NCBI GenBank assembly: GCA_041687695.1
Contig: JAWLBL010000015.1
Coordinates: 35,627-99,626 of the forward strand
DNA: 64,000 bases
From: Myxococcota bacterium
GTDB lineage: Bacteria; Myxococcota_A; UBA9042; PHBI01; JAWLBL01
Reading direction: 5' to 3'
In this document: one piece after another, positions 48,314-64,000 of the stretch
Numbering within the stretch: the stretch's first letter is position 1
Layout: each line of letters begins with the position of its first letter
Notes under the pieces: generated by a model
What the model was told of the DNA's origin: nothing
The model's database searches: none
The model's input: only the letters and a program-made list of their open reading frames with translations
Translations under genes and position numbers: made by a program

Positions 48314-50458
48314 CTACGGACAGCCTGATGACGAAGTCCGAGGTGCCAAGGAATCAACGAGCCACGACCACGTTCCAGGCACGTCCAGGAGAAAGCGTCC
48401 GACGACCTCGCGTTGCACCCAATCCGGCATCAGCGGTTGGAACTTGCTCAGTCGATAGGCGGGAAGCTCCTCGGCAACCTCGCTCCTGAAACTCGCATCC
48501 TCCCATAGCCCTGCGTCCGCCAAGCGCGCCAAGAGTGGAGCCAGGGTGCGTTCGTCGGCGTCGTTCCCGCGGATCTTGATCACGAAGTTGTCGCACACGA
48601 CGCGCCACTCGGCCCCTAGCCCTCGCAGGGCGTGACGCAGGGTGCTGTTGATGCGTCCACCTGCGAACGTCCACCAACGAACCTCGCCGTCGCCGAACTC
48701 GAAGTCGCTCGCGTTCTCGGGCGAAAGGACGTGAGCCATGGCTGACCGTTGGGCGTTCAACACGTCTGAGGCTGAGTGTTGCAGGTAGGCGTAATCTCGT
48801 CGCCCAACCAGCACGTCCCGAATCGTCCGACACAGGGTCCGTCCCAGGAACTGCGGTAGGAAGCCTCCCCAGGTCGGCTGTCGACCCGCAGGTGCCGGTT
48901 CGACCACCACTCGTCTCTCGTCATGCCTCACCTGAGCGAGGAGCCAAGCGCGTCCCCCCAGGAGGAAGCAGCTCACATCCTCGACAAGACCGTCGACGAA
49001 ATCCTGGGAAAGCGTCCCGAGCGGCTGACCGGCCCTGGTCGCAACCGAGTAGGTCGCCGGGCTCGAGAACACGGCGTAGAGCGACATGAAGTTGCGCCGT
49101 CCAAACCGCTTCTCGGCTTTGGGACCCAGGACCAGACGACCGCTGCTGAGGCTCATGGCGCCATCGCCGAGCATCCAGTCCAGGAGGCGGTCGAACTCGC
49201 CACGTGAGATCCCTCGAAAGTCCGGTATCGAACTGAGCAGTCGCCATGCCTCCTCGACGGGCACCCCGCTGTCGGCCAACGATATCGCCAGCAGCTGGTG
49301 GATGAGAACAGGCCAACATCGATCATTCAGCTCGACGTCTTCGACCCATCCCGACTTGGCCAGTTCCACCAGCGCGACCGCCTGCAGAACACCGTCGGTG
49401 GACTCGCACAGAAACGAAGTGTTCGCAGCCTGGCCGGCGCGCCGGCCCGTTCGTCCCATGCGCTGCAAGAACGAGCCGACGGTATCGGGAGCCTCGATCT
49501 GAAGGACGCGATCCAGGTCTCCGACGTCGATCCCCAGCTCCAGCGTGGACGTGCACACGATACAGGCGTCACTACCGTGATGGAATCTCTCCTCAGCGAG
49601 CTGTCGCTCCTCTCGAGACACCGCGCTGTGGTGAACGAACACCGTCGTGCCCGCTCGACGCATTCGCTCGGCCACGGCCTCTGTCGTGGCTCGCGACTGG
49701 CAGAAGAGCAGGCTCTTGCCCGATTTGGCCAGGCGCGCCGCATCCCGCGCGAGATCCGACAGATCCGAGCGGTGTGCGACCAGGATCTGTCGTCGCCCTG
49801 GAGCTTTCGGAGGATCTACGACCACACCGACTCGCCGCGAAGTTCCCGTCAACCATCCGAGGATGGCCGCCGGATTACCCACCGTCGCGCTCAAGCCGAC
49901 ACGCTGCACATCGTGGCTGGACAGCCGCGCCAACCGCTCGACGACACTCATGAGGTGAGCGCCGCGGTCGGTGCCAGCGACGGCATGGACTTCATCAACG
50001 ACGACCACGCGCAGGTCCGCGAAGAGCGATCGCGCATCCACCCGCTCCGAGATCAGCATGACCTCGAGGGACTCGGGTGTCGTCATCAACAGATCGGACG
50101 GCTCCGCCAGGAACCGGTTCCGCTCGTTGGCCGGAGTGTCTCCGTGCCAGACGAACCGCCTCAGCCCCACCATCTCCGTATATAGCCCCAGCCGATCGGA
50201 CTGGTTGTTCAGCAGCGCTTTGATGGGAGCGATGTAGATGGCCCCGATCCCGGCTGGCGGATTGGACGCCAGCATAGATAGAGTTGGGAACATCGCCGCC
50301 TCAGTCTTACCCCCGGCCGTCGGTGCCAGAACGACCGCGTTCGCCCCGTCCAGTAGCGCCGCGCCCGCTTCATCTTGCACTGGGCGCAGACTCGTCCAAC
50401 CCAGTCGCGCGACGATCGCCTCCTGCAGCCGCGGTGTGAACCGGGAGAAGACGCTCAC
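48314..50458 (-). CDS. brxHI: Lhr-like DEAH helicase of BREX
   Basis: APTAGGKTEA, TTPESLE, VDEVHA, GLSATVGN, TSTLELGIDVG, QRMGRTGRR; GTGA-coupled to brxD. Confidence 0.85.
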   Translation of the reverse strand: MSVFSRFTPRLQEAIVARLGWTSLRPVQDEAGAALLDGANAVVLAPTAGGKTEAAMFPTLSMLASNPPAGIGAIYIAPIKALLNNQSDRLGLYTEMVGLRRFVWHGDTPANERNRFLAEPSDLLMTTPESLEVMLISERVDARSLFADLRVVVVDEVHAVAGTDRGAHLMSVVERLARLSSHDVQRVGLSATVGNPAAILGWLTGTSRRVGVVVDPPKAPGRRQILVAHRSDLSDLARDAARLAKSGKSLLFCQSRATTEAVAERMRRAGTTVFVHHSAVSREERQLAEERFHHGSDACIVCTSTLELGIDVGDLDRVLQIEAPDTVGSFLQRMGRTGRRAGQAANTSFLCESTDGVLQAVALVELAKSGWVEDVELNDRCWPVLIHQLLAISLADSGVPVEEAWRLLSSIPDFRGISRGEFDRLLDWMLGDGAMSLSSGRLVLGPKAEKRFGRRNFMSLYAVFSSPATYSVATRAGQPLGTLSQDFVDGLVEDVSCFLLGGRAWLLAQVRHDERRVVVEPAPAGRQPTWGGFLPQFLGRTLCRTIRDVLVGRRDYAYLQHSASDVLNAQRSAMAHVLSPENASDFEFGDGEVRWWTFAGGRINSTLRHALRGLGAEWRVVCDNFVIKIRGNDADERTLAPLLARLADAGLWEDASFRSEVAEELPAYRLSKFQPLMPDWVQREVVGRFLLDVPGTWSWLVDSLAPRTSSSGCP

Positions 50459-51798
50459 CACACGTCCTCACGCGGCACCAGCTCATCTTCCTCCGAATCC
50501 TCAGACGATTGTTGACGACGAGGTCCCGAGCCGGGAAGCGCCAACTCCTCTTCGGGTTTCAGCTCCGAAGGTGTGAAGCCGTAGCCCTTCATCGGGTCGT
50601 ACTCGGGCTCGTCTTGCACCAGGTCCATCACCGTGACTAGCGCGCGCAAGAACTGGCGCGGGACGACACCTACATCGCGCTTGAAGCCCGCTGTGACTTC
50701 TTGGACCAGCCGCTTGATGAACTCACGCGTGACACGCGACTCGAGGCGACCCTCGACGTTTCCGGGATGCAGCTCGAGCAAACGCAGCGCCACGCTCTCG
50801 AGCCGCTCGGCGTCGAAGGGCTTGAGCACCAACTGTGGTTGTCGAACGCTCGCAAACCCTGCCTGCTCCATGAAGCCGATGCGCTCGTGCAGCGGAGCCA
50901 GACCCGCGACGCCCTGTCGTGAGTCGAAGAAGTCGGGAGTTCCGGTGAAGACCCAAAGAAGCCCCGGGTAGGAACCGGCGGCATCGGCGATCTGTCGGAT
51001 ACCATTGAGCGACTTGTGCCGTGAGTCTTTGCGCATCCGCAAGATCGTCTCGGCCTCGTCGATGACTACTACCAGGCCTCGGTATCCAGCCGCCTTGACG
51101 ATCTCCAGCACGCCTCGAAGGTAGTCCAGAGCGTCTCGGCTCTCGATGTCACCCTTGACGCCTGCGACTCGCTTTGCGACGGCGCTCACATTCCCACTGC
51201 CGCACAGCCACGAGATCAATGCACCGGCCTCGGCGACGTCTCCCCGCTGCTTGAGATCGAAGATCGCCTGCACGACGCGCACGAAGTCCTGCGGCGCCTG
51301 CCCAGCCGTCATGGCCGCGAGGTCTTCATCAAGCGCGCGGCGCACCTTCTCGTCGAAGTCGCTGGCCTCCTCGTCCGCGCCAGCAGCGATGAGTCGCTCC
51401 TCCACCTTGCCTATCCAGCGGTCGAGGACGTCTCCCAGCGCTCCACGTCCGCATGAGGCCGTTCCAAGCTCGGTCATTACCTTTCGGTACACATCGTCGA
51501 ACCGGTGGAAGCGCAGGTCGTTGTCGCTCACCACGACGAAGCTGGTTGCGAAGCCCCGCGCCTGCGCGTCGAGGACCGCCAATCGCGCCATGAAGGTCTT
51601 TCCGCATCCGTATCCACCGCGCAGGAACTTCACCGTCCCCTCGCCCTGAGCCGCCAGATCCAGCTGCCTGCCGATCTCGCCACGCTGCTTGTCGACACCA
51701 ATCGCGAAGGTGTCGATCCCTCGCTCGGGCACCAGGCCCTTGCGAAGCGATTCGAACACGTGCTCCTTGTCTCGCGCGCTCATGACCTGGCCCATCAC
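50455..51798 (-). CDS. brxD: BREX ATP-binding protein BrxD
   Basis: SLRKGLVPERG, RGGYGCGKTF, VVIDEAET, GLAPLHERI, VGVVPRQFLR; located between pglZ and the helicase. Confidence 0.9.
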   Translation of the reverse strand: MMGQVMSARDKEHVFESLRKGLVPERGIDTFAIGVDKQRGEIGRQLDLAAQGEGTVKFLRGGYGCGKTFMARLAVLDAQARGFATSFVVVSDNDLRFHRFDDVYRKVMTELGTASCGRGALGDVLDRWIGKVEERLIAAGADEEASDFDEKVRRALDEDLAAMTAGQAPQDFVRVVQAIFDLKQRGDVAEAGALISWLCGSGNVSAVAKRVAGVKGDIESRDALDYLRGVLEIVKAAGYRGLVVVIDEAETILRMRKDSRHKSLNGIRQIADAAGSYPGLLWVFTGTPDFFDSRQGVAGLAPLHERIGFMEQAGFASVRQPQLVLKPFDAERLESVALRLLELHPGNVEGRLESRVTREFIKRLVQEVTAGFKRDVGVVPRQFLRALVTVMDLVQDEPEYDPMKGYGFTPSELKPEEELALPGSGPRRQQSSEDSEEDELVPREDVW

Positions 51799-54662
51799 CG
51801 CTGTCCTCCATCCCTCACGTAGCGCTTCACGCCACCTACATCTTCAATCCTCACCTCGAAGGGCGCCTTTGCGGCATGCAGCTCGAATGCTCGAGCGAAG
51901 CGCCGGAAAGCCCGCGGCGACCCGAGCATTCGCGCCGCCTCGTCCTCTCGGATCGCTCCGTGAGCCTCGATGTGCGCGAAGACCTCACGCACGCCGCTGT
52001 CCGGCAGTTCAGCCAGCCACGCGCTCCCCACCGCGCCCTCGGAACGGACCTCGTCCTTGGCGTTCCGGACCCGTGACCCGGACACGGCGTATCTCGCGTC
52101 GACCCGAGCGGGTGTCACCTCGACCTGTCCAAGTGGGTGATGCACCTCCACCTGCACCCGGACATCGGTCGGCCCAGTCAACCTGAAAAACGCCTCGAAC
52201 CACCCGCCAACCTTCGCATCGATCAGCCCGCCATGGAGGCTTCCGGCTTCCGACACCTGGACCAGTTCCAAGTCGACACCAACGGCATCCACCACCCGAA
52301 TCCCCAAGGCGACCGACGCTCCGTCATCCAGACTCAGGGCGTCGGCCCGCACACGACCCTTCAGACGATGTAGACCGGCGACCCCATCGCCCGCCTTGAC
52401 TTCCAACCGGTACGTCGCAAGGCGCCCACCGGCAGGCGCCGTATGGGTCACCGTGATGACCGGGATGACTCGCTCCTGCAGGCTGTTGCCCCCGTGCGCA
52501 AACCCCCGCGCTGCCTTGCCGTTGGCGAACAGAGCGGCCGTCTCCGGGACGACCAGATGACCATCCGCGCCGTCGTACCGCAGCTCGCCAAGCGCCATCC
52601 GTACGTTCCCTGGCTCATCGGCAGCCTCCTGCCGGAACACATGCCGCCGCCCCGCATCCCCCGTCTTTCCGAACGGCACCCGAGGCGATTCGTCGTCCGC
52701 CAGCAAGAACCCATGGTCCGCCGTGACTACGAACCGCTGAACGCCCGCAGACCGCAAGCGACGCCATGCTCGGGTCAGATCCCTCAGGACGCCCTCGAAG
52801 GTCTGTAGACCGAGCCCCTGCTCACCGGCCTGATCGATCTCCAGGCTGTGCACCACCACCAACCGAGCCTCGGCGATCTTCTGCTTCAAGACGTGCGTTT
52901 CGCACCCGACGACCTCGTGCAGCGGAATCGACGGGCAGGTCCGGCCCCCAATCCGATCGTGCATCGCCCGTCGCCGACTCTCCGGGTCACACACCCGGAA
53001 TTCACCGGCCCGGAGCCCCAGCACCCGGCCGCCCTTCATATCCAAGCCCAATCGTCCGCGCTCCACCACCGGCGCCAGAGCGTTCATCCCGACTTCCGTG
53101 ACCGTCGGCAGCTCGGCTAGCCTCGCCTCCACCTCGACGGTGGTCATCTCGTCCTCGCGCATACCCGCGGCGAGCTGCGCCCCCATCTCGAAGCGGAGCG
53201 CGTCCACCAGGAAGTAGGCCACGGCGCCCGCCCTGCTATCCACCAGTGGCTTGACGACCTCGTCGAAGATGGCCCGCTGAAGGAGGCGTTCCTCTGGCAA
53301 GAAGCCCTCGGCCCGACACAAGGCGTTGAAGTCGCTCGCCCAAGCATCGGACCACTCGCGCACCGGGCGCCTCATCGCATCCAGGCGCGCCCGCAGCACC
53401 TCGGCTTTCGGCAACGCCGAATCGAGCAGCGTCAGACGTCGCGCCTCCAACCGCCGATGCGCCGCATCCACGGCCGCGCCTCGCTGCTCGTAGCGCTGCA
53501 CGGCGGCTCCGAGTCCGCCAGACTTCACCCCGAGCCGCGGGCCTGCCGCCCTGAGCGCCTGCCCCAGCGCCGCCGCCAGCCCGATCAGCTCCCAGGCCGA
53601 GCGGCGCGGTACATCCTCCTCCACCCAGAACGATCCTCCTCCCAGACGCTGCTGCGCCCACTCGGCCGCCTCGTCCCAGGCCTGCCGTCCCAACGCTGCC
53701 AACGCAGCCTCGAAGATCAGCTCTTCCTCGAATCGGAAGGTGTCGATGCGGCCCAGGTCGCTCGCGGCGGCGGCTATCACCTCGACCTGGAGCGCCGCCT
53801 CGGTAGCATCGGCCGTCCGGATGTAGACCTCGCGTCTCCGGCGCAGGGCCCGCGCCAACCCCGTACAGTTGGCCACCACCTGGGCCGGGAGCGCCTTCGC
53901 CGCATGCAGCTCGGCAGCCGTTGGCGGCCGACTCAGGTCATGCACATACTCGACCGCCAGAGCCCAACTCGTCACCTCGAAGGCCACCGCCTCGGCCGCC
54001 AGCCGGCCCCCCAGGCCCTGCGCACCGATGTCCCGCCACGCCGTTGGCAGCCCCGTCCAGCGCTCGAACGCGCCCCGCACCGCGCGTCGGTCGGATTCCA
54101 AATCCATGCGTTTCGCCAAGGGACCACCCCCTAGCAGCTCGTCGACCACTCGTTCGAGCCCCATTGCCTCGAGCTGCGCGGCCAGGCCGTCATCTCCCTC
54201 GCTCAGAGCCGCCAACCAGGCATCCGCCTCCTCCAGAGTCGGCGCGCCCTCGCGACCCTGCGTGTGGAACCGATCGATCAGGCCGGGTTGAACCCGTCCC
54301 GCCGCGGCCTCCACCACCAGGGTCTCCAGGCTCTTCGTGTACGTTCGCCCAATCTCGGCCAGCTCGAGTAAAGGAGTCGTGGCGAGCGCCGCTTCATCGA
54401 AGCCCGGCACGTGCACCAGCAACTGCGGCTTGGCCAGCCCTCCAGTGAGCTCGATCACGTCCAGCATCAACTCGAGGTGGCTTCCTCGGAACGCGCGCAC
54501 CTCGAATCCCGCCCGAGCCCCAGCCCTCCAGCGGTCCACGAAACCGGTGAAGGCCTTCTCCGGGTCCAGCCAGATGACGAGACCATGCTGCCGGACCACC
54601 CGGCTGACTTCGGCCTCCAGCACCGCCGAAACCGGCCCTACCTCGTCGGCCGCCACCTGCAT
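51795..54662 (-). CDS. pglZ: BREX (type 6-like) PglZ phosphatase
   Basis: AAGGAGG RBS; FLVDALRFEMG, LPTVTEVGMNAL, VTADHGF, HGGNSLQERVIP. Confidence 0.92.
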   Translation of the reverse strand: MQVAADEVGPVSAVLEAEVSRVVRQHGLVIWLDPEKAFTGFVDRWRAGARAGFEVRAFRGSHLELMLDVIELTGGLAKPQLLVHVPGFDEAALATTPLLELAEIGRTYTKSLETLVVEAAAGRVQPGLIDRFHTQGREGAPTLEEADAWLAALSEGDDGLAAQLEAMGLERVVDELLGGGPLAKRMDLESDRRAVRGAFERWTGLPTAWRDIGAQGLGGRLAAEAVAFEVTSWALAVEYVHDLSRPPTAAELHAAKALPAQVVANCTGLARALRRRREVYIRTADATEAALQVEVIAAAASDLGRIDTFRFEEELIFEAALAALGRQAWDEAAEWAQQRLGGGSFWVEEDVPRRSAWELIGLAAALGQALRAAGPRLGVKSGGLGAAVQRYEQRGAAVDAAHRRLEARRLTLLDSALPKAEVLRARLDAMRRPVREWSDAWASDFNALCRAEGFLPEERLLQRAIFDEVVKPLVDSRAGAVAYFLVDALRFEMGAQLAAGMREDEMTTVEVEARLAELPTVTEVGMNALAPVVERGRLGLDMKGGRVLGLRAGEFRVCDPESRRRAMHDRIGGRTCPSIPLHEVVGCETHVLKQKIAEARLVVVHSLEIDQAGEQGLGLQTFEGVLRDLTRAWRRLRSAGVQRFVVTADHGFLLADDESPRVPFGKTGDAGRRHVFRQEAADEPGNVRMALGELRYDGADGHLVVPETAALFANGKAARGFAHGGNSLQERVIPVITVTHTAPAGGRLATYRLEVKAGDGVAGLHRLKGRVRADALSLDDGASVALGIRVVDAVGVDLELVQVSEAGSLHGGLIDAKVGGWFEAFFRLTGPTDVRVQVEVHHPLGQVEVTPARVDARYAVSGSRVRNAKDEVRSEGAVGSAWLAELPDSGVREVFAHIEAHGAIREDEAARMLGSPRAFRRFARAFELHAAKAPFEVRIEDVGGVKRYVRDGGQR

Positions 54663-54826
54663 CCGGTCCTCCTTGGCCACCCCGACTGCTCGCGGCAGCC
54701 TATCCTCATCACATTATTCGACCAATCCCACCAGACCGCGAAAAGCGTCCGTGCCCTCGGTTTCGTTCGATGAGAGGGCGGCGGGTCGATCCCCTCTTTC
54801 GCGAGCCGGCGCCAAGCGGCCGCCAG

Positions 54827-56491
54827 TCAGCTTTCGCTTGCATGCTCCAATCGGGTCTCACCCGCCCGCCGTCGGCCGGCTTCTCTGAGGCCGTCCACCA
54901 GACGTGCGACCTCCAGTCGCGCTACCTCGTCGTCGGGTTCCGGGACCGGACAGATGAGACGGTGCTCCTTGCTCGCTTCCTGTTCGGCCGCCCCCGTCCA
55001 CCTGGTTCGTGGGCCAGGGAAAACTACGAAGGCGTTCGGTTCCTGGCACGACAGGAGCCGGTCGTCCCCCGACTTCCACCGCAGTTCGGCTTGATATCTG
55101 CCTACTTTCTCGATTTTCTTCGTGCCGTCGCTGAACTCCGGATTGGCCAGCGATGCGTCACCGATGGCGAAGGCGCAGCAGTCCCCACTCGACCAGATCA
55201 GTAGGTAGTCTGGAGAACGCTCCTTGCCACTGAGCAGTGTGTCCCGCTCCTCGATCTGTTCGGCCGCCCACGTCCACCGCGAAATCGTCCTCTCATGCAA
55301 GCCAGGAGCATCTCCGAGGTTCACCTGGATCGACGTCGGCTGGAACTCGAACCTCAGCCGTTCACCTTCGCGAGACAACGTCCAGACTGCGTGAGTGATG
55401 CTGCCGGCAAAGCCGTGCGTTGGCGGGCCTGTCACGTGAGGCGCGTCGCCCGTCCAGCCCAGCTCTCGCAGCGCCCGAACCATGCGCACGGCGCCCCAGA
55501 CTTCGAAGATGTCTGGGGCCTTGAGCATGGGAAGGGCGGAGTAGCTGCTCTGATCCATGATCGGGCGCTCGCTCAGCTTGCTTTGGAAGGCCTGCAGCAA
55601 ACGGCGCAGCCTGAAATCGCGCTGGACGGCCGGCGTCACAGCGACCTCGGATTGCAGGTGTCGTACATGAGCGAACAAGGACCAGACCCGTGTTTGCACG
55701 GTTCGCAGCTCACTCAACCTCTGCGAGCAGTCATCGCGCTCCCTTCGCACCTCCGCGGCTCGTTTCGGCCCGCACGAGCTCAGGCGAGCTTCCACCTCGC
55801 GCAGCGTTGCCATCAGAGCCGACTCGTGCTGCAGCAGATCCGCAACCCGCTTGCGACACCAGGCCGACATCAGTCGATGCTCGGGCAAGTCATCCAACAC
55901 ATCCGTTGTGTGGCTGCGGGAAAGAACCCCGAGTTCTCGGTAGGGCAGAAGCACGAGCCCTTGGGCGCAGCCGAGTTCCTGGTCCACGTCTTGGATCAGA
56001 AGGTCTCTCTGGCCGCCCGCGCTCCGAATGGCTTCAGCGTGTGCCCTCGAACGCAGGTTGGCCGCATCCCAAACGACTGCGCATCCCAACTCGGCCTCGA
56101 TCTCGGCCAAGATGCGCACCAACTGTGCACGATCGAACAGACTGGCGGGCCAGAGGTAGCATTCCAGCCGAGCCTCGGGCGCGCCCCGTAGGCGCGCCGC
56201 GAAAGTACCGAACCTGCGTTGCTCAGCGATCTCCCCACCCAGCGGCTTCCAGGAGAACCAAGTGAGACCTTCCGCCGGAAGACCCGCACTCGTTATCACC
56301 TCCGGCGCGAGCTGCTTGCGTTCTCCGTCTCCGCCGCGCTCGAGCGCGATGCGGTTGGAAGTCGCCGCGAAGTACAGCTCGGGACATCGATCGTCGAGCT
56401 GCACCACGAACGGCTCGTCGTAGGGAAGCACGTCGAAGCGTTCGGCGGTGGCCGAGCGGACGGCGATCATGGAGATCTGCGGAACAGACAT
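54827..56491 (-). CDS. McrC-like protein (DUF2357-like N-terminus plus degenerate PD-(D/E)xK domain)
   Basis: DLPEHRLM, VQRDFR, DIFEVWG, RSPDYLL...IGDAS, KVGRYQ, AFVVFPG parallel McrC-like DTPENR / LYEYW / PD / DAK / YPG; follows the McrB-like gene. Confidence 0.65.
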   Translation of the reverse strand: MSVPQISMIAVRSATAERFDVLPYDEPFVVQLDDRCPELYFAATSNRIALERGGDGERKQLAPEVITSAGLPAEGLTWFSWKPLGGEIAEQRRFGTFAARLRGAPEARLECYLWPASLFDRAQLVRILAEIEAELGCAVVWDAANLRSRAHAEAIRSAGGQRDLLIQDVDQELGCAQGLVLLPYRELGVLSRSHTTDVLDDLPEHRLMSAWCRKRVADLLQHESALMATLREVEARLSSCGPKRAAEVRRERDDCSQRLSELRTVQTRVWSLFAHVRHLQSEVAVTPAVQRDFRLRRLLQAFQSKLSERPIMDQSSYSALPMLKAPDIFEVWGAVRMVRALRELGWTGDAPHVTGPPTHGFAGSITHAVWTLSREGERLRFEFQPTSIQVNLGDAPGLHERTISRWTWAAEQIEERDTLLSGKERSPDYLLIWSSGDCCAFAIGDASLANPEFSDGTKKIEKVGRYQAELRWKSGDDRLLSCQEPNAFVVFPGPRTRWTGAAEQEASKEHRLICPVPEPDDEVARLEVARLVDGLREAGRRRAGETRLEHASES

Positions 56492-56502
56492 GGGACCGCC
56501 TG

Positions 56503-59496
56503 CTACTGCCACGGCGAGACGAAGCCCATCGTCATCTGCTTCGAAGCGAGTTCGATACGGCGGCGACAGCGGGGCAGGTCGTTGAGGCCCAGCTTCTTGA
56601 GCGCGGCGATGACCGGTCCCACCTGGTCGGCGGCTCCCGATAGTTTCGTCAGGATTCGGCTGGCCAGCAGGCGGTCGAGGACCTCGCTGGCCGAGATCAG
56701 CTCGGCCGCGTCGGACCCGAGGCTCTCGTACAGGCTGATGAAGCCCGCGACGTCCTCCAGCACTCGGCGCGAGGGCAACAAGTCTTCGCGAAGGTGGTCC
56801 TTGCGCACGGTCTCGGTCATGGTCCGAGTGACGGAGGCGACTTGCTCCCAGGCCTCGGAGCTCGGCTTGCTGTCCGGGAGCGACGGTAGGCCGCTCAGGG
56901 TGACGGGCTCCTTGGGATCGACACCGAGCGGTCGCACCCTCACCGAACTCAAGTCCAGCTCGGGTGCATCGAGCTCGATGAGAAAGCAGCGGTCGAGCAC
57001 CTTGGGCGACGGCGGGCGAGAGGTGTCATCGATGTTGAGGGTTCCGCAGGCATACAGTTCGGTTGGCCACTCCGCGGGACGTGAGGAGACGGGCAGGTCC
57101 TTAAAGAACTTGGCCAGATAGTACTCGGGCCGCGTCAGGTTCACCTCGTCGAACAGCACGAGGTGCCGGTCTCCCCGCAACTCCTTGAGCTTCGGGACCA
57201 GGCCCTTCGATCCATAGATCGTCTTGTCGTTCGTCCAGTGAGCCTGGACCGCTATCTCGTGGAAGGTACGCTCACCTACGGTGCCAAGCAGCTGGCTGGC
57301 CGTGCGGACCAGGGTCGTCTTCCCGCATCCAGGGGGGCCGGCCAACAGCACGAAGGGCCTGACCGCCAAGCCCAGCAGCAGCATCGTCAGGTTGCCGCGT
57401 TCGACAGGCTCTCCAACGCTGCTTGCGTGGTCCATGGCCTCGAAGAGTTGCCCGATGAACGGCTTGTTCGGCGCTCGACCTCGGCGGGCTGGCGTGATCG
57501 GGGTGGCCGGCTGCGGGGCCTCGGGCGGCTCAGCTGCGGCTTCGACCTCCTCACTACTCGGCTGCGCGTCCAAGTCGGCTTCGGCCCACGGCCTTCCGTC
57601 GACGAGGGGCGGACCCGCGTCGGCTTCGGGGAGGATTAGCGGCGGCTCCTTGCGCTGCTCCGATCCATATCTCGGGCCCGCATCGATGCTCGTGGAGTCC
57701 GACGTCACGATGTTGCCTCCGGTGGGCTCACCTTCCAATCGCCGGAAGACACGGGGACCCTCGTGCTGAAACGCCTTGATGGGCAGCGTGCCGGCCTGTG
57801 CTGTGACCACGACGGTCTTCGACATGCCGAGATCGATGATGATGTCGCTGGCCTCATCGAACCCAACGCAACCCTCAGGGACAGTTCTCTCCGCCATCGG
57901 GTGAGCCACTGGCTGGCTCGCAACTCGAACCCCTTTCATGTCCAGGAACAGGGCATCGGTGTTCTGCACCTGCATGGACTTGACTCTGGCGATTCGCTCG
58001 TCAGGGTCCCAGAGCACCTCCATCGACCCGGGAGCGCGCCTGACCGTCAAGTCCCTCCGGGGGTACTCGGTTCGGTCTACGCGTCCGCCATCCTTGCTTG
58101 GCAGCAGGCCTGCGGTGAGCTCGTCATCCTTTCGGAAGGGAGGTGTCGGGATGAGGCGAAGTCCCCCGACATCCGCGAACTCCTCGTTGCGCTCGACGAC
58201 CGTCACGCTGTTCGCCTTCGCCCCGCGTACTCGCCACTCGAAGACGACGTCGGCCGGCATGGTGGACAGGAAGTCGCTTTCGGGAGCCTTGACGTCGACC
58301 CGCCCGGGGCCGTGAAGGCGCCGGGGCTGATGTTGCTGATGCAGTACGTGAGCAAGTCCGCCGAGGGCAGCTGCGATTGCGTACGCGCTCCCAACTCTGA
58401 AGATGTCACATGAGACTACTTCCTTGCCGTAGATCGCCGAGTGCATCGCCTCCTCGAACCCGACGAGCTGGCTGGTGCCGCCGGCGAGGATGATGCCGTC
58501 GATGATCCGATGAATCTGTTCGCCTGACGTCACGCCATGGCGCTCGAGGTGGGGGGTGATCTGCTCCTTGGCGTACTCCGACTTCGTGAGCTGCCCGTAC
58601 AGACGATTAGCCAGGTTGCGATAAAGCGGTGCCAGCTCGTGCCAGAGCCGCTTCGATGCCTTGCGCAAGTGGTCGGGCGTAAGCTCCAGCCCGGCGGGGC
58701 AAGGCGGCGACGTGAGCGCCACGGGCTCCTTCGACTCGGAAACCGCACGCTTGGCGGCCTCCATCAGATCCAGCATGCCCTGGCGACTTGCACCATCGTC
58801 AGTCGACGATGTCAGCTTGAGATCGCGAACCAACTGCTCGTCGACCCACCGGCCACCCAATTCGCTACTATCGCCGCGGACGGGGCGCAGGCGCTCGGGG
58901 CGCTGGCGAGCCGTAGTCGCGTCGACCGTAGTGGCATCCTTGCGAGTCAGGACGAAGGTCATGTTGCAGGTGGCGGCACCTACGTCGATCACCAGGTAGA
59001 TTCCCGTGCGCCGCTTCTCCAGCGCCAGTTCGCGTGTTACCAGCCGGAAGTACTCGAGGACCATTTCGGGCTCGAACAGCGTCGACGCTTCCGGGGCCGC
59101 AGCTTGGATGGCCTCGAGGTACCTCTTGCGACGCCCCTCGTCACCAATCGACGGCATCAGCACCCAAACCGGCCGCCGGTCCTCGCTCCCAGCTCGAACT
59201 CGGCCGAGGATGCTGGACAGGTATCGGCCAAAGACCTCCTGGCTTCCGTAGACCCGGAGCAGAGTCTGGCCTCGCGCTGTGCTCCCGAGGTAAAGGTACC
59301 TGTCCTGCTTTTCACCGAAGAGGATCCAGCGCTTGAGGTCGTCGACTCGGACCACGCTGCCAGCAGGACGTCCGGTCGGCTCGTCCAGATGAAAAGACCA
59401 TTGATCCGGCTTGTTCTCCAGCCCTTCGGCCGCCACCCAGCAGCGGGTGGGACGGAAGGGTTCGCCGGTGTCGTTGTCGGTGTAGAGGAACTTCAT
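56503..59496 (-). CDS. Hsp70-like ATPase fused to McrB-like AAA+ GTPase
   Basis: Hsp70/actin motifs FEPE, VIDVGAAT, LGGRWVD, EAAKRAVS, ILAGGTS; C-terminal FVLLAGPPGCGKTT, FDEVNLTRPEYY, GTLNIDDT, SPKVLDR. Confidence 0.85.
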   Translation of the reverse strand: MKFLYTDNDTGEPFRPTRCWVAAEGLENKPDQWSFHLDEPTGRPAGSVVRVDDLKRWILFGEKQDRYLYLGSTARGQTLLRVYGSQEVFGRYLSSILGRVRAGSEDRRPVWVLMPSIGDEGRRKRYLEAIQAAAPEASTLFEPEMVLEYFRLVTRELALEKRRTGIYLVIDVGAATCNMTFVLTRKDATTVDATTARQRPERLRPVRGDSSELGGRWVDEQLVRDLKLTSSTDDGASRQGMLDLMEAAKRAVSESKEPVALTSPPCPAGLELTPDHLRKASKRLWHELAPLYRNLANRLYGQLTKSEYAKEQITPHLERHGVTSGEQIHRIIDGIILAGGTSQLVGFEEAMHSAIYGKEVVSCDIFRVGSAYAIAAALGGLAHVLHQQHQPRRLHGPGRVDVKAPESDFLSTMPADVVFEWRVRGAKANSVTVVERNEEFADVGGLRLIPTPPFRKDDELTAGLLPSKDGGRVDRTEYPRRDLTVRRAPGSMEVLWDPDERIARVKSMQVQNTDALFLDMKGVRVASQPVAHPMAERTVPEGCVGFDEASDIIIDLGMSKTVVVTAQAGTLPIKAFQHEGPRVFRRLEGEPTGGNIVTSDSTSIDAGPRYGSEQRKEPPLILPEADAGPPLVDGRPWAEADLDAQPSSEEVEAAAEPPEAPQPATPITPARRGRAPNKPFIGQLFEAMDHASSVGEPVERGNLTMLLLGLAVRPFVLLAGPPGCGKTTLVRTASQLLGTVGERTFHEIAVQAHWTNDKTIYGSKGLVPKLKELRGDRHLVLFDEVNLTRPEYYLAKFFKDLPVSSRPAEWPTELYACGTLNIDDTSRPPSPKVLDRCFLIELDAPELDLSSVRVRPLGVDPKEPVTLSGLPSLPDSKPSSEAWEQVASVTRTMTETVRKDHLREDLLPSRRVLEDVAGFISLYESLGSDAAELISASEVLDRLLASRILTKLSGAADQVGPVIAALKKLGLNDLPRCRRRIELASKQMTMGFVSPWQ

Positions 59497-59620
59497 CGCA
59501 TCCCCAGGGCGAAATCTTGAGCCCGACGATTATTCGGCGAGAGCAAGCTGCGCAAGCATCTTTGACGCCGAGCTGTATCGGCGCATGGGCTGGCCAGCGG
59601 TTCAGCTCACGGGGGCTCGG

Positions 59621-60346
59621 CTACTTGAAGGGCGGTCCGTAGCTGAGGAGGTGGCGGTCCGGGCTGACTTCGAGCTTCGAGCGCCTGGCAACTGCAACGT
59701 GTTCGTCAAACAGTGCCCTCTTGAGGTGCATCAAGTCATTCCTGTAGTCCTGACGCAGAATCGCGTGCTGTCCGGAAGCGAAAGCCTCTCGTATGGCGGG
59801 GAGGTTGTCCGGCATGCTCCTGGGCTTTCGATACTTGCTCCACACCCGTTCAGCCCACTCCGCCCAGGCATCGTAGAAGTAGTTGCGATAGAGCAAGTCG
59901 AGGAACTCGACCAGAACGCCGTCGTGGCCGAGCCCCCCCAGGTACATCCGCGGCTCGCCCGCAGGAATGGTGTGGACGTGAGGCAACGGCTCTTTGTAGA
60001 GCGGACCAAGACACGTGGGGTCGAAGTCCAGCCGGAAGTACTGCGCGCTCACGCCGGCGTGCCCACGATAGAACTCTTCCAGCGGACCGTCCAACGTGAC
60101 GAGCGCCTGGGCGTTGATGTACGTGACCTGAGCCCCTTTGCGAGCCACTACGCAGAAGAACGCGAGGTTGTCTTCGACCTGGCAGGCTTCAGGTTGGCGG
60201 TTCAGGTGTTGGTCGACGATGCGCTTGAACCAGGCATGCAGGGTCTCGCTAGGGCCTATTCGGCCATCAGATACTTGCCACGTAGGAGGAAATCGCCCTC
60301 CACTCCCAAGAAGCAGCAACAGGTTCTTTGATCCATCTGTGAACAT
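59621..60346 (-). CDS. Hypothetical protein, weak DUF2290-like motif
   Basis: YFRLDFDP...EPLPHVH....EPRM...EFLDLLYRNYFYDAW; starts 1 nt after the upstream stop. Confidence 0.6.
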   Translation of the reverse strand: MFTDGSKNLLLLLGSGGRFPPTWQVSDGRIGPSETLHAWFKRIVDQHLNRQPEACQVEDNLAFFCVVARKGAQVTYINAQALVTLDGPLEEFYRGHAGVSAQYFRLDFDPTCLGPLYKEPLPHVHTIPAGEPRMYLGGLGHDGVLVEFLDLLYRNYFYDAWAEWAERVWSKYRKPRSMPDNLPAIREAFASGQHAILRQDYRNDLMHLKRALFDEHVAVARRSKLEVSPDRHLLSYGPPFK

Positions 60347-60347
60347 G

Positions 60348-61103
60348 TCAGCTCTTGCGCGGCACTGAGGGGGCGCGAAGCGCCGCTTGTATCCTCTCCA
60401 CGGGAACCTCGTTGCCCGAATCAGCGCTCATCAACCAGTTCGCGAGCAAGGTCTCGTGCAGCGCATACAGCTTCCAGGAACAGACATCAGCTCTGAGGTT
60501 GAGGGGTTTGCGTGTGTTGAGCCAGAGCTGGTGCCGTAGACCTACCGGCTCGCCGGTGATCGCGTCGTAATCGTGTGCCAACTCCTCCTCCTCCCCCAGG
60601 AGCTGGGCCGTCTCGCACATCAAGGGGACCACCTTGGGCCCTCCCGCCTTCTCGATGGCCTCGTGAATCGCACGGCAACGGCTGGTGTGGCCAGAGAAGA
60701 CCTTCCATTGCAGCTCGGGGAACAGACGGTGCATCTCTTTGACGAGTCGCTCCTGGACCAGCTGGCTGGCTGCATACCAGGGAGGCATGCGCCCGGACTG
60801 TGACAGGAACTCGAGAACTTCGAGCAGGCTGTCTTGGTGCATGCCCAGCCGGACCGCGGCCCAGCGGACGGGCAAGACCTCCTCCTTCTGGAAGAAGTTC
60901 TCCAGGCTGTGTCGGTCGTAAGTCTCTCCGGCCAAAGCTTCGGGCGGCTGGCTGAAGCCCTGTCGGAACAAGAAGGCCCTCCACTGCCCGTGGACCCAAC
61001 CGACGGCCACTTCAGGCCCGTACATGTCGGCAATCAGTTGGTAGTCGCAGTACCGAGCGCTAAGGCGCTTCAGCTTCTCCTGGACTTCCTCAGCAGTCAT
61101 CAT
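60348..61103 (-). CDS. Hypothetical protein, possible helix-turn-helix
   Basis: GAGGAG RBS; 251 aa; VRWAAVRLGMHQDSLLEV segment. Confidence 0.65.
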   Translation of the reverse strand: MMTAEEVQEKLKRLSARYCDYQLIADMYGPEVAVGWVHGQWRAFLFRQGFSQPPEALAGETYDRHSLENFFQKEEVLPVRWAAVRLGMHQDSLLEVLEFLSQSGRMPPWYAASQLVQERLVKEMHRLFPELQWKVFSGHTSRCRAIHEAIEKAGGPKVVPLMCETAQLLGEEEELAHDYDAITGEPVGLRHQLWLNTRKPLNLRADVCSWKLYALHETLLANWLMSADSGNEVPVERIQAALRAPSVPRKS

Positions 61104-61143
61104 GGGTAGGTCTCCTCGTAATCATCTGGGTACGGGCACGGGG

Positions 61144-64000
61144 TCAGTCGACGTCCTCGAGGGTGTCGGCGGGTTCGTCCTCCTCGGTGGTGTCCTCGTC
61201 GTCGAGGGCGAGGGCGAGCTCGTCGGGGGCGAGGCGGCTGAGGAGGGTCTGGCGGTGGGAGAGGGCGCCGGGGTTCGAGGCCCCGTAGGCGAGGCGGGCC
61301 GTGGCCGCGTCGGGGGCCTCGAGGTGGAAGTCGGCCTTCTGCTTCTCGATGAGGGTCAGCTCGAGGGACCAGCAGAGGTCGGGGTGGGCGGTCCAGAGGC
61401 CCGGGTCGAGCAGGCTCAGGCCGGGCTGAGGACGCTTGTCCTTGCGGCGTCGGCGCAGGGCCTCGGTCTCGATGGCCGACAGGGCTGCCTGGGGCTGCTC
61501 TGAGATGAAGGAGGCCCGCAGGACGTCGGAGTCGGCTTCGGTCAGCCGGAAGTCGGGGGCGATCTCGTGCTGCAAGCGCAGCTCCCAGGCGAAGGCGCGC
61601 GCGGGGTGATGACGCCAGAAGCAGCCGTGGGCGACCGCCAGCGAGGGGTCGGTCTTGCACTTGCCCTCCACCCGGGCCGGGAAGTAGCGGCGGGCCAGCC
61701 GCGACCAGTCGTAGTCCTTCTTGCCCTTGGCGTTGGCCAGCTCCTTCCACCACTTCCTGGGATCGGTCCATTGGGGCACGAGCAGCGGCCACAGGGCGGC
61801 GCTGTTGACCATCACCCCATCGTCCAGCACCGGCGCGTAGCGCGCGTCGGCCTGCCTGGGCTGACAGTCCGGGCCGGTTGGCGGCGGCCCCTGCTCGGCG
61901 CACTCGCGCACCGCCTTGACGAACGTCTCCAGCTCGTCCTTCCACGCCAGCAGCTTGGCCAGGCGCTTCTTGGCCTGCGCGGCGGCCTTCTTGTCCGACC
62001 CGTCGCGCGTCACCCGGCAGTCGGCCACCTCGCCTTCGAGCCGGGTCAGCACCGGCCGCAGGTGCTCGGCCTCTAGCACCCGCAGGGTGTCCGTGTTCCA
62101 GCGATGCAGGGTCACCCAGGCGACGAAGGTCTTCTTCTCGCTCGACAGCGGCCAGTGGACGGGCCGGTTGTCGTACATCCCCTTGTGCACGGCGAAGAAC
62201 TGCGTCCGCAGGTACTCGCGCAGCTCGCGCCTGGGATCGATGGCGCCCATGTGCCGAGCCCAGGCCTGCCGGATGGGCCTCGCCGCCTCGTGCCCCAGCG
62301 AGTCCCCCAGCTCGGTGTCGTCCAGCGTCCCATCCAGGAACAGCAGGCCGGCCGGCAGGGCCGCGCTCAGGTCGTCGCGGGCCGGGTCCAGCACCCCCTG
62401 CCCCTCGGCCCCGAAGCGTCCCAGCGCCACCCCCACCGCGAAGCTCAGGTGGTCGGTCGCTGGCTCCGGGTCGTACTCGGGCTGGTAGGGAGGCAGCGGC
62501 TCACCCTCGGCCCGGTCCACCGCCCGTTGCGCCCAGTCCTGCGCCGCCCGCCAGGGCGAGGGACCGGCCCGCTTGAACTCCACCGAGGGCTCGCGGTGCG
62601 CCTCGTGCTCAGTGAAGGCGGCTTCGAGCACCCCAAAAACATCAAGCGCGGAATCAAACTGAAAGATCGGGAGCCGCCTAACATCGCCAACGTTGAAGTG
62701 CAATGTGGGATTCAACGCTGAAAGGACACGATGAGCATTCCGCGAGTTCATGAGCATCAAGAGGTTGACTGCAGAGTGGTTTGCGTCCGGATAAACAGAC
62801 GTTCCCATTGTTCCGGTGACGCTCTTCCAACGGTGAAGGCGCCCGCTGAAATCAGCTCCGAGCGCATTCGCAGCCACCGCAGGCAGGAAATATTGGCTCT
62901 CGCCGGCGACACGCTTGGACACACTGCCGGTGCGTAACAAGTGCCACTGCTTGAGCACCGTTCCATTCCGGTCCCAGTTCAACACGTTGGATAAGGGTTC
63001 AAACCATCGGGCACCGTTGGAACCGTCGAGGTAGGGGACGTAACGAACCGTCTGAAGCGAAGGTCTGCTCGGTGCCTCTGTGGCGCGCTCCCTCAGCACG
63101 TCAGAATACGGGACCTCCCAGGGTCTTCTGAGAAACCGTTCCTGCGGGCTCGTTTGGGCTCCAGCGGTGATGTAGGCGACGGACTCCAATGGTGGGAAGG
63201 CGCCGAAGCGGGAGATAAATTGCTCAGTCCACCAGTAGACCAGCGGCCAGCCGGGGATGACTTGCAGCTTCCCAAGCTGGAAGTCGAAGCAGCCCACTCC
63301 GGCCAGGATGGCGGCGCGCTTGCGGAGCGTCCGTTCTGAATCGCGGGAGCGATCGTCGACGGGCGTCGGCTGCTGGGCCGCGCTGTCCAGCGACGAGGGC
63401 CCGCAACGCCGGAAGACGCTGACGACGACGGCGACCACTTCGTCGAGCATCTCCTCGAAGGCACCACGGTCGAAGTCCCCCAGCGCGCGCAGGTCGAAGG
63501 TCTGCAGCAGGTGTCTTCGCAGGTCCTCGTACTGGCTCAGGAACATCCAGTTGCGCATGGTCAGCAGGGCCGAGGTGCCCCACTTGCGGACCAGTTGCAG
63601 GCCGCGCAGCAGGAAGGCGGCGTACAGGTCCGCCTTGCCGGCCGGATAGGTGCGCTGGACATAGGCGGTGTCCTGCATCTTGGCGGTGCCCTGGTAGGGC
63701 GGATTGCCCACCACCAGGTCGTACTGGCCCTCGCGAAGCAGGCGCAGGAAGCGCACCCCGGCGGCGAGCTGCTCGCCGCGCAGGCGCAGGCCCAGGTCGT
63801 CGCCGCTGGTGTGGCGGGCCAAAAAGTCGGTCAAGCTGGCCAGCACGCTCTTCGAGGCCTCCTGAGCCGACAGGGTCAGCCGCTGCTGCTCGGCGGGGAA
63901 GCCGTCGAACAGGCTGCCCTGGTCGGGCTTGACCCGGCCCAGATCGGTCTCGTGCTCTCGGATGGCCTCCAGCACCGCCTGGTCGACCTTGAGCAGGCTG
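61144..64000 (-). CDS. pglX: BREX (type 6-like) adenine methyltransferase PglX, 5' end outside the window
   Basis: YDLVVGNPPY, KADLYAAF, TMRNWMF, MYDNRPVHWPLSS, LDDGVMVNSAALWPLL, DYDWS.LA; frame open to the window edge. Confidence 0.92.
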   Translation of the reverse strand, partial: SLLKVDQAVLEAIREHETDLGRVKPDQGSLFDGFPAEQQRLTLSAQEASKSVLASLTDFLARHTSGDDLGLRLRGEQLAAGVRFLRLLREGQYDLVVGNPPYQGTAKMQDTAYVQRTYPAGKADLYAAFLLRGLQLVRKWGTSALLTMRNWMFLSQYEDLRRHLLQTFDLRALGDFDRGAFEEMLDEVVAVVVSVFRRCGPSSLDSAAQQPTPVDDRSRDSERTLRKRAAILAGVGCFDFQLGKLQVIPGWPLVYWWTEQFISRFGAFPPLESVAYITAGAQTSPQERFLRRPWEVPYSDVLRERATEAPSRPSLQTVRYVPYLDGSNGARWFEPLSNVLNWDRNGTVLKQWHLLRTGSVSKRVAGESQYFLPAVAANALGADFSGRLHRWKSVTGTMGTSVYPDANHSAVNLLMLMNSRNAHRVLSALNPTLHFNVGDVRRLPIFQFDSALDVFGVLEAAFTEHEAHREPSVEFKRAGPSPWRAAQDWAQRAVDRAEGEPLPPYQPEYDPEPATDHLSFAVGVALGRFGAEGQGVLDPARDDLSAALPAGLLFLDGTLDDTELGDSLGHEAARPIRQAWARHMGAIDPRRELREYLRTQFFAVHKGMYDNRPVHWPLSSEKKTFVAWVTLHRWNTDTLRVLEAEHLRPVLTRLEGEVADCRVTRDGSDKKAAAQAKKRLAKLLAWKDELETFVKAVRECAEQGPPPTGPDCQPRQADARYAPVLDDGVMVNSAALWPLLVPQWTDPRKWWKELANAKGKKDYDWSRLARRYFPARVEGKCKTDPSLAVAHGCFWRHHPARAFAWELRLQHEIAPDFRLTEADSDVLRASFISEQPQAALSAIETEALRRRRKDKRPQPGLSLLDPGLWTAHPDLCWSLELTLIEKQKADFHLEAPDAATARLAYGASNPGALSHRQTLLSRLAPDELALALDDEDTTEEDEPADTLEDVD

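Follow-up and report, generated by a model that had tools for sequence, protein, structure and literature searches.

Four co-oriented genes, designated g1–g4, lie on the minus strand of the 64-kb window analysed here (the window is the whole stretch of DNA studied, positions 35,627 to 99,626 of contig JAWLBL010000015.1, Myxococcota assembly GCA_041687695.1); the locus belongs to a contig of an 8.0-Mb genome that is 99% complete. The four genes occupy 6.46 kb and separate pglX from pglZ of a bacteriophage exclusion (BREX) operon, and this nesting, described already in the initial annotation of the DNA, was borne out by assignment of both flanking genes with PADLOC and Pfam. The 6.46-kb stretch probably consists of two independent two-gene modules, g1–g2 and g3–g4, held as cargo in a variable slot of the operon; g3–g4 is probably an McrBC-type, nucleoside triphosphate (NTP)-driven, restriction-like machine of the group in which an Hsp70 nucleotide-binding domain (NBD) and substrate-binding domain (SBD) are joined to McrB (Hsp70-NBD/SBD-McrB). 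The genes are as follows (aa, amino acids; HTH, helix-turn-helix):

60348..61103, minus strand: g1, 251 aa; partner of g2; possible HTH protein
59621..60346, minus strand: g2, 241 aa; putative distant DUF2290-like protein
56503..59496, minus strand: g3, 997 aa; predicted Hsp70-like NBD/SBD-beta fused to a predicted McrB-family (NxD-type) AAA+ NTPase
54827..56512, minus strand: g4, 561 aa from a GTG start; predicted McrC-like partner

Gene layout and composition

The stop codon of g1 is separated from the start codon of g2 by 1 nt, in agreement with the initial annotation; the gap between g2 and g3 is 124 nt, and g3 and g4, described before as abutting, overlap by 10 nt with a GTG start (CCGTGGCAGTAG). 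The minus-strand frames were taken as the coding ones because their G+C content at third codon positions (GC3) is 0.74–0.80, higher than the 0.66–0.69 of the long antisense open reading frames (ORFs). Total G+C is 0.60–0.65 for g1–g4, 0.68 for pglX and pglZ, and 0.72–0.80 for the chromosome left of the island. No sigma-70-like promoter or terminator was found in a scan of the minus strand from 54500 to 61300; a repeat search gave short chance-level repeats and no flanking duplication.

N-terminal half of g3

An AlphaFold2 model of g3 was built from 16 sequences (mean pLDDT, the predicted local distance difference test, 75), and the following parts were distinguished in front of the AAA+ domain:

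58327..59496, minus strand: Hsp70/actin-fold nucleotide-binding domain, g3 residues 1–390; phosphate-2 and adenosine motifs kept
57937..58254, minus strand: eight-stranded beta domain like Hsp70 SBD-beta, g3 residues about 415–520; no alpha-helical lid
57799..57852, minus strand: beta hairpin IIIDLGMSKTVVVTA, g3 residues 549–566; after the SBD; pLDDT 82–88
57466..57765, minus strand: disordered Pro/Glu/Ala-rich linker, g3 residues 578–677; pLDDT 26–45

Both the model and profile comparisons indicate that this half is an Hsp70-like unit composed of an NBD and an SBD-beta. Foldseek of the g3 model returned at least 500 PDB matches at E <= 0.001, among which all of those listed were Hsp70 or Hsp110; the best was DnaK without SBD-alpha (5obu, E 6e-15, 557 columns). 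Independently of the model, hhalign of the g3 family against three DnaK paralogues of the same genome gave a probability of 94.6% and E 6.9e-8 over residues 81–374, with the pairings (g3/DnaK) PSIGDEGRR/PAYFDDSQR, EPEMV/NEPTAA, VIDVGAATCN/VYDLGGGTFD and ILAGGTSQL/ILVGGSTRI. The phosphate-2 motif is VIDVGAATCN at 169–178 (D171, G173 and T176 conserved), the adenosine motif is AGGTSQLVGF at 338–347 (G339 and G340 conserved), and E-P-E is kept at the position of NEPTAA; D-x-K-x-W at 53–57 may correspond to the catalytic lysine region of Hsp70.

The SBD-alpha helical lid is absent from the model, where the eight strands (417–519) are followed by four more strands and then by the disordered linker; in the family alignments the linker (578–677) differs in length and shows no conservation. 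The hairpin is the most conserved element of the beta-rich region: D555, G557, M558, S559 and K560 are invariant in 16 sequences, and D-x-G-M-S-K is kept at >=85% in 56 representatives. It contains a phosphate-1-like D-L-G-M-S-K-T (555–561) placed after the SBD-like domain, so that the canonical Hsp70 order of phosphate-1, phosphate-2 and adenosine motifs is not followed in g3. When the hairpin segment was aligned with DnaK (hhalign), the best local match was IDLGTTNSVVAV, at the phosphate-1 loop I-D-L-G-T-T-N-S-V, and was non-significant (E 0.17, 12 columns).

C-terminal domain of g3

56506..57465, minus strand: predicted McrB-family AAA+ domain, g3 residues 678–997; Walker A, Walker B, N821-I-D-D824

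Motifs, profiles and the model all point to an AAA+ domain of the McrB family (NxD-type). Walker A is GPPGCGKT at 720–727 and Walker B lies at about 779–787 (LVLFDE at 779–784), both being conserved in 56 full-length representatives; the motif FDEVNLTRPEYY is found at 782–793 and GTLNIDD at 818–824. The domain is matched by AAA_5 of Pfam (E 7.1e-5), aligns with E. coli McrB (hhalign probability 90%, E 1.6e-6) and has a fold that matches McrB 6hz4_A; PDB sequence-profile searches with g3 gave generic AAA+ Walker A matches only. Alignment with E. coli McrB runs without a gap and places N821 on N333 and D824 on D336, with identical spacing to R-x-F (RRF in McrB); relatives have the signature G-T-V-N-M-D-E, N821 aligning to N-[MIV]-D-E, and the +2 Asp of the family signature is better conserved than the +3 Asp or Glu. 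The signature of the NxD clade is given in the text of Bell et al. (2024, eLife, PMC11090510) as N-x-D plus D/E, and by the alignment of N821 and D824 the motif of g3 can therefore be read either as NxD+D or as NxxD with an added +2 Asp. The former description of g3 (Hsp70/actin-fold ATPase and beta-rich region, flexible linker, McrB-type NxD domain) thus agrees with Foldseek, hhalign and motifs alike.

Among 30 distant profile relatives of g3 that were scanned, 27 have AAA_5 and four have the DNA-binding domain MrcB_N; distant AAA+ relatives on plasmids adjoin genes annotated as DUF2357, 'nuclease domain' or EVE.

McrC-like partner g4

55148..55213, minus strand: putative nuclease motif P-D-Y ... 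G-D-A-S-L, g4 residues 434–455; aligned to RPD ... FDAKY of DUF2357 proteins

The g4 model was built from 13 sequences (mean pLDDT 69) and opens with a beta domain at the N-terminus, which is followed by a helical part that includes a long hairpin (210–283; 37-residue hairpin) and by a well-predicted alpha/beta C-terminal domain of PD-(D/E)xK fold. For comparison, six DUF2357 proteins were taken from 6 of 61 genomes of the same phylum that were searched; hhalign of the g4 family against this set gave a probability of 94.3% and E 9.9e-8 over 260 columns, with the pairings (g4/DUF2357) S-P-D-Y/R-P-D, G-D-A-S-L/F-D-A-K-Y and K466...Y473/K-M-H-A-Y. By this match g4 is therefore regarded as a predicted McrC-like protein, as the initial annotation had proposed; its fold also matches McrC 6hz4_M. 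P434, D435, G451, D452, A453, K466 and Y473 are invariant in 13/13 sequences.

Neither g4 nor its 12 homologues are recognised by any of the family libraries searched (Pfam, PADLOC, NCBIfam). No Foldseek match of the g4 model reached E <= 0.001 (best row, restriction enzyme BsmI, E 0.038), the PDB sequence-profile search gave nothing, and a word-indexed homologue search with g4 returned the query alone. The latter method is too insensitive for the g4 and g2 families, since relatives at 26–36% identity exist.

Distribution and neighbourhoods of g3–g4

Fifteen relatives of g3 were obtained by the word-indexed search. The resulting 16-sequence profile, run against 1.84 billion representatives, gave 103 proteins at E <= 1e-30 (fragments included) and 3701 at E <= 1e-10, most of the latter matching the C-terminal 330 residues only. 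Genome loci were sought with two peptide patterns in one genome per species (185,579 species), a scan by which relatives can be missed, and 17 loci with a g3 relative were found; the hosts are Myxococcales, several Rhizobiales, Bosea, Azospirillum, Sphingomonas and uncultured proteobacteria. When these loci were searched with eight proteins of the window (tblastn, E <= 1e-5), g4 was found directly after g3 in 14 of the 17; of the remainder, L017 holds fragments of both genes, and L007 and L016 end at a contig edge. At 12 of the 14 loci examined the g3 stop and the g4 start share the sequence CC-NTG-GCA-GT-AG/GA, which explains the conserved ...SPWQ end of g3 and the MAV... start of g4. Two copies of the pair are decayed: in L004 (12943–14540) g4 is split into two ORFs, and in L017 (10001–13843) g3 is interrupted by about 2 kb with a 636-aa ORF on the opposite strand.

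Full-length copies are carried by four rhizobial plasmids, where they are annotated as 'AAA family ATPase' and 'hypothetical protein'. The annotated pair of an Agrobacterium plasmid has the same 10-nt overlap; on a Mesorhizobium plasmid, the g3 relative is followed after a 29-nt gap by a 422-aa hypothetical protein. The plasmid copies adjoin an integrase, a Phd/YefM antitoxin, a HEPN protein and helicases, and the annotation of the Agrobacterium and Mesorhizobium loci shows other neighbours, with no g1 or g2 among them.

At the 17 genome loci no match was obtained with g1, g2, PglX, PglZ, BrxD or BrxHI of the window (tblastn, E <= 1e-5), and looser searches with g1 and g2 (phmmer to E 10; tblastn to E 10 next to g3) gave chance-level rows only. 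Neighbours were scanned at 12 loci (50 proteins), the close relatives of L002 (L003, L004, L005 and L017) and the truncated L007 being left out. Defence-family neighbours (PADLOC, E <= 1e-5) were found in 8/12 loci and none in 4/12; they comprise type I restriction-modification (RM), an Hma-like methylase and ATPase with a PbeA-like helicase, HEC-04, kinase-type candidates, a type IIG-like methyltransferase, AbiEi/AbiEii, DpdE and PglZ-BrxL. Genes g3 and g4 are inherited together as a unit, in defence islands.

In the Kofleriaceae locus L012 an Eco57I/MmeI-type methyltransferase is directly upstream of the pair, and a second, different McrB-like protein (HARE-HTH + AAA_5, 992 aa; L012:18241–21219) is encoded 3.6 kb downstream of it.

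The g1–g2 pair

Scans of g1 against Pfam, PADLOC and NCBIfam gave no match. In its family, winged HTH rows of Pfam appeared in two of five members and were non-significant (E 0.29 and 0.34), so that the HTH-like character assigned to g1 in the initial annotation is left with these hints and no significant match. The DUF2290-like assignment of g2 holds weakly: g2 itself has no Pfam match at E <= 10, its PADLOC and NCBIfam scans are also empty, and two of five members of its family reach PF10053 (DUF2290; best E 2.7e-6). Alignment of the g2 family with one canonical DUF2290 protein was weak (hhalign probability 15%, E 0.0017) and ran over 54 columns of the conserved core. The invariant core of g2 is Y-x-R ... 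P-x-P-H-x-H ... R, and the core of the family reads Y-x-R-x-D-Y-D ... P-x-P-H-x-H ... R.

A sample of 400 other genomes of the phylum, drawn from a larger group, was searched with g2, and four of them have relatives (E 4e-37 to 1.9e-14). In all four, a homologue of g1 (27–41% identity) lies directly upstream of the g2 homologue in the same orientation, and no match to g3 or g4 was found at these loci at E <= 1e-3. A gene of an SNF2-family helicase is directly upstream of g1–g2, in the same orientation, at one of the four; another locus ends at a contig edge. The word-indexed search with g2 returned the query alone, tblastn of g2 against plasmids gave no match, PDB sequence-profile searches with g1 and g2 gave nothing, and Protein Atlas had no row >= 0.9 for either. 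Prediction of a g1+g2 complex gave scores of 0.00, 0.37 and 0.04, which speak neither for nor against binding. From these sequence comparisons g1 is possibly a small DNA-binding protein paired with a putative distant DUF2290 relative, g2; the pair is an arrangement of a DUF2290-like protein undescribed so far.

In L045 (3341–9677 and 9999–14745), a complete genome of the same phylum, the helicase-g1-g2 trio is about 9 kb from another BREX locus, and a GTPase-centred conflict system (GAAD, GASH, DO-GTPase1/2, GAP1-N1 domains) lies between that BREX locus and the trio. The g1–g2 pair therefore travels in defence islands there too.

BREX locus

From 48.3 kb to the end of the window the minus strand carries eight genes in head-to-tail order. 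With PglX upstream of g1–g4 and PglZ, BrxD and BrxHI downstream, the genes that flank the cargo are:

61144..64000, and beyond the window, minus strand: pglX, 3' part in the window, 1435 aa in full; PADLOC PDLC02523 E 0; Pfam Eco57I
51795..54680, minus strand: pglZ, 961 aa; PADLOC PDLC02548 E 0; Pfam PglZ E 1e-11
50455..51798, minus strand: brxD, 447 aa; PADLOC BrxD E 5.7e-167; Pfam BrxC_BrxD
48314..50461, minus strand: brxHI, 715 aa; PADLOC BrxHI E 7.8e-273; Pfam DEAD/Helicase_C/WH_Lhr

The locus was completed by adding 20 kb past the right end of the window, where the rest of pglX is followed by a 460-aa OLD/ABC-type ATPase and then by BrxC, BrxB, BrxA and BrxE. The order is accordingly BrxE-A-B-C … PglX … PglZ-BrxD-BrxHI, all eight proteins being matched by PADLOC. 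The host locus is BREX type 6, because BrxE, BrxD, BrxHI and a type 1-like core together define this type; BrxE is exclusive to type 6 according to a recent survey (NAR 2026, gkag035, PMC12839542). Type 2 BREX was dropped as a candidate, BrxE, BrxA and BrxB being present and PglW not being seen in the stretch examined; a role of g3 as a replacement of PglY/BrxC was dropped as well, BrxC being present upstream.

The gene of the OLD/ABC-type ATPase is a second nested gene, between brxC and pglX, about 2 kb past the right end of the window (L023:5596–6978; AAA_21 E 5e-30, AAA_15; PADLOC PDC-M07A E 1.6e-64, also HEC-01A, AriA and AbiLi). It is separated from pglX by about 500 nt of unassigned sequence, and no partner nuclease was identified there.

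The pglX–pglZ junction

A search of 401 genomes of the phylum, the genome of the window included, gave PglZ relatives of this subtype in 53 of them (E <= 1e-30). Eighteen of the best PglZ loci were taken, and in 15 of them pglX is found together with pglZ; the distance from one to the other is <250 nt in five (junction empty), about 0.9–2.1 kb in five and 4.1–8.2 kb in five, the ten wider junctions holding cargo that differs from locus to locus. No match to g1–g4 was found in the inserts of these 15 loci by tblastn (E <= 1e-6), and none with the family profiles of g3, g4, g1, g2, DUF2357 and NxD-AAA+. Through plasmid annotation three cargo proteins could be named (UvrD-type helicase, 'RNA-binding domain-containing protein', hypothetical/membrane protein), a fourth remaining unmatched; in L056 the cargo comprises a UvrD-type helicase together with two small genes, and the insert of L062 is low in GC and comprises three genes. 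The brxC–pglX junction is variable as well, and in the genome of the window it is occupied by the OLD/ABC-type ATPase. Thus the cargo slot of this BREX operon is filled in many ways, of which g1–g4 is one, and the survey of related loci suggests a BREX-internal hotspot at pglX–pglZ that could be mined for further defence genes.

In two of the loci with a gap of <250 nt, pglX-like sequence spans 10 kb (L058:3084–13415) and 7 kb (L061:3060–10179) and comprises two or more ORFs; in L058 a 359-aa ORF on the opposite strand lies between the pglX-like ORFs. The arrangement may reflect either a duplication of pglX or an inversion of the phase-variation kind.

Comparison with known systems

The fusion of Hsp70-NBD/SBD to McrB (NxD) is described by Bell et al. 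(PMC11090510) as the deepest-branching NxD McrB group, and the fusion, whose novelty the initial annotation had left to be checked, is not new. According to the text of that paper, no NxD GTPase has been characterised, and NxD systems other than CoCoNuTs are deferred to a later publication; full-text literature searches found no bench study of an Hsp70-McrB system. With its Hsp70-like NBD and SBD N-terminal to the GTPase, g3 is likened to the group (exemplar QOZ24013.1) by the architecture described there, from which no difference was found; g3–g4 is probably a further member of this computationally defined 2024 group, and its setting within BREX is of a known type. The McrC active site, the D-x-G-M-S-K hairpin and placement in type 6 BREX are not described for the group in the text or supplementary file 1 of PMC11090510, and in the sheets examined supplementary file 3 holds CoCoNuT types only.

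EcoKMcrBC and g3–g4 have in common overlapping genes in the order B then C and an AAA+ domain that carries both Walker motifs (A and B) and, at sensor 1, the asparagine motif. They differ in that g3 has an Hsp70-like unit and a 100-residue linker in place of the N-terminal DNA-reading domain, and its signature is N-I-D-D with the +2 Asp the better conserved; g4 is longer than McrC (561 versus 348 aa), carries an additional beta domain at its N-terminus as well as a long helical hairpin, lacks the D-x-K lysine and is without profile similarity to E. coli McrC itself. CoCoNuT type III (Hsp70-like units CnuCD or CnuD, with CnuB/CnuC), as presented in the text of PMC11090510, shares with g3–g4 an Hsp70-like NBD/SBD on an NxD McrBC-type core and an McrC-like subunit with a non-canonical PD-(D/E)xK site. 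In contrast to it, g3–g4 is a two-gene unit with the Hsp70 unit on the B subunit instead of the C subunit, and without the long coiled coil of the GTPase, HEAT repeats, CSD, HEPN, the CnuH helicase and TerY-P genes.

The Helicase + DUF2290 system (Rousset et al. 2022, Cell Host Microbe) is reported in PMC9122126 and PMC10952713 to block T7. It resembles g1–g2 in that g2 is a putative distant DUF2290 relative and a helicase adjoins one of the four other g1–g2 loci; it differs in that no helicase is beside g1–g2 in the window (the flanks are pglX and g3), the conserved partner is g1 of about 250 aa, and g2 is below Pfam detection. Backup effectors embedded in BREX have been listed in PMC12839542 (GmrSD/BrxU, PARIS-like OLD-ABC modules, PD-(D/E)xK REases, i.e., restriction endonucleases). 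They share with the present case the position of cargo inside the core operon, an OLD/ABC-type ATPase standing here also between brxC and pglX; McrB, Hsp70 and DUF2290 are not mentioned in the main text of PMC12839542, the supplementary data of which might list such cases. The idea of the initial annotation that the cargo serves as a backup when BREX is inhibited would fit the published concept.

A compact two-gene example inside a complete BREX operon of an 8-Mb genome of cultivable type, g3–g4 therefore lends itself to three questions: which signal is sensed by a chaperone-like domain standing in for the DNA reader of a type IV enzyme, whether a lysine-less PD-(D/E)xK domain still cuts, and whether pglX–pglZ cargo backs up BREX.

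Proposed mode of action and alternatives

By analogy with McrBC, the C-terminal AAA+ domains of g3 would form an McrB-like ring, and g4, made by coupled translation, would plug the ring, stimulate NTP hydrolysis and supply the PD-(D/E)xK-fold effector domain, which the complex would bring to its substrate. The Hsp70-like unit, on a flexible tether of about 100 residues, takes the place of the DNA-reading N-terminal domain of McrB; this unit, instead of a modified base, would select the target by binding a ligand specific to infection, which may be RNA or an extended peptide belonging to a phage protein. RNA is favoured as the ligand of such units by Bell et al. in the text of PMC11090510, and a phage protein or nucleotide state was favoured in the initial annotation.

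Several points weigh against assignment of g3–g4 to a working McrBC-type machine. The alignments behind the structure models are shallow, with 16 sequences for g3 (mean pLDDT 75) and 13 for g4 (mean pLDDT 69). PF00012 (HSP70) does not match g3, and a search of the whole genome with it gave five other matches, three of them full-length, g3 not being among them. The phosphate-1 loop is not present at the N-terminus of g3, residue 1 of the model aligning to Hsp70 residues 22–27, and ATP hydrolysis by the sensor is therefore doubtful. PF09823 (McrC/DUF2357) does not match g4, and hhalign of the g4 family with E. coli McrC alone finds nothing (probability 0.5%). The lysine of D-x-K is replaced in all 15 g4 homologues that have the motif (S in three, T in seven, C in five), and the 16th, the 422-aa partner on the Mesorhizobium plasmid, is without the nuclease motif; since this lysine is missing, the nuclease of g4 may be inactive, and the replaced lysine is the chief difficulty for a plain DNA-cutting model. 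An 'inactivated PD-(D/E)xK' is described in the text of PMC11090510 for CoCoNuT types II and III, which have separate nucleases, and no separate nuclease of this kind is present with g3–g4. On the sequence data an active, non-canonical site in g4 is slightly favoured, because the other site residues are invariant and no other nuclease gene is found in the loci of the pair.

The lysine-less site is also the starting point of a different reading, in which g3–g4 targets RNA or translation: the Hsp70-like unit binds RNA or ribosomes, the lysine-less domain only binds nucleic acid, and the outcome is abortive infection, not DNA restriction. It is argued in the text of PMC11090510 that the degenerate Walker A-like motifs of Hsp70 units fit RNA binding better than chaperoning, and g3, too, lacks the N-terminal phosphate-1 loop, as all 15 g4 sequences lack the D-x-K lysine. 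However, nuclease-dead CoCoNuTs always have a HEPN or other RNase according to the same text, whereas none accompanies the pair at the loci examined, and the invariance of the remaining g4 site residues (13/13) points to a working site; an RNA-directed mode of action is judged unlikely. Integration of g3–g4 with BREX or with a methyltransferase, as a second effector that acts on DNA unmarked by PglX or is licensed by BREX, is quite improbable. The pair does lie downstream of PglX here and directly downstream of the Eco57I/MmeI-type methyltransferase in L012, a distant g3 relative follows PglZ-BrxL in L016, and backup effectors embedded in BREX have been proposed in the text of PMC12839542. Against this, L012 is the only one of the 12 loci scanned with a methyltransferase directly beside the pair, and L016 the only one with BREX genes; in L006 the pair is followed by a type I RM operon, the Hma-type methylase of L008 is about 4.5 kb off on the other strand, and g3–g4 was found in 0/15 other loci of the same BREX subtype. 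From the rarity of BREX and methyltransferase neighbours and the result for these 15 loci it follows that g3–g4 is self-sufficient in its distribution.

The initial annotation had taken g1–g4 as one new defence system, with the HTH-like and DUF2290-like proteins regulating or completing the Hsp70-McrB/McrC pair. The common orientation and tight spacing (1-nt gap, 124 nt, 10-nt overlap), the failure to find a promoter or terminator between 54500 and 61300 on the minus strand and the shared lower G+C (0.60–0.65 versus 0.68) are in line with a single system. Yet g1–g2 and g3–g4 were always found apart elsewhere: none of the 17 genome loci of g3 has a match to g1 or g2 even at E <= 10, the two plasmid loci likewise have other neighbours, and none of the four other g1–g2 loci has a match to g3 or g4 (E <= 1e-3). 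Because of this lack of co-occurrence a single four-gene system is largely refuted and must be considered very improbable. It is hardly credible that the pair is a housekeeping ATPase or one serving the maintenance of mobile elements, e.g., a protein-remodelling machine or an addiction module. Copies on large rhizobial plasmids and loci with ordinary neighbours only (OsmC, Na/H exchanger, epimerase) could be so explained; homology to McrB and McrC-like proteins, defence neighbours in 8/12 loci scanned, and the patchy and rare occurrence of the pair (17 loci among 185,579 species in the pattern-limited scan; 103 representatives at E <= 1e-30 among 1.84 billion) are not of the kind expected from it.

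Within the favoured reading of g3–g4 as an McrBC-type cargo module, a further elaboration may be put forward as a long shot. The sensor could be a rewired actin-fold ATPase, in which the IDLGMSKT hairpin (about 553–561) either completes the nucleotide site in a manner resembling circular permutation or fills the peptide cleft as a pseudo-substrate; a ligand of the SBD would then gate the nucleotide state and thereby license both the tethered McrB ring and the McrC-type nuclease with its replaced lysine. A phage protein, e.g., an anti-restriction protein that also blocks BREX, might provide this ligand as an extended segment. If this were true, g3–g4 would be an McrBC machine whose trigger is a protein instead of a modified base.

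Left edge of the island

To the left of the BREX genes an ORF of 1352 aa was found at 44123–48181 on the plus strand; it gave no Pfam or PADLOC match and a weak match to TIGR04201 (myxobacterial Cys-rich repeat, E 4.4e-5). From this ORF leftwards G+C climbs to 0.72–0.80, which marks the edge of the island.

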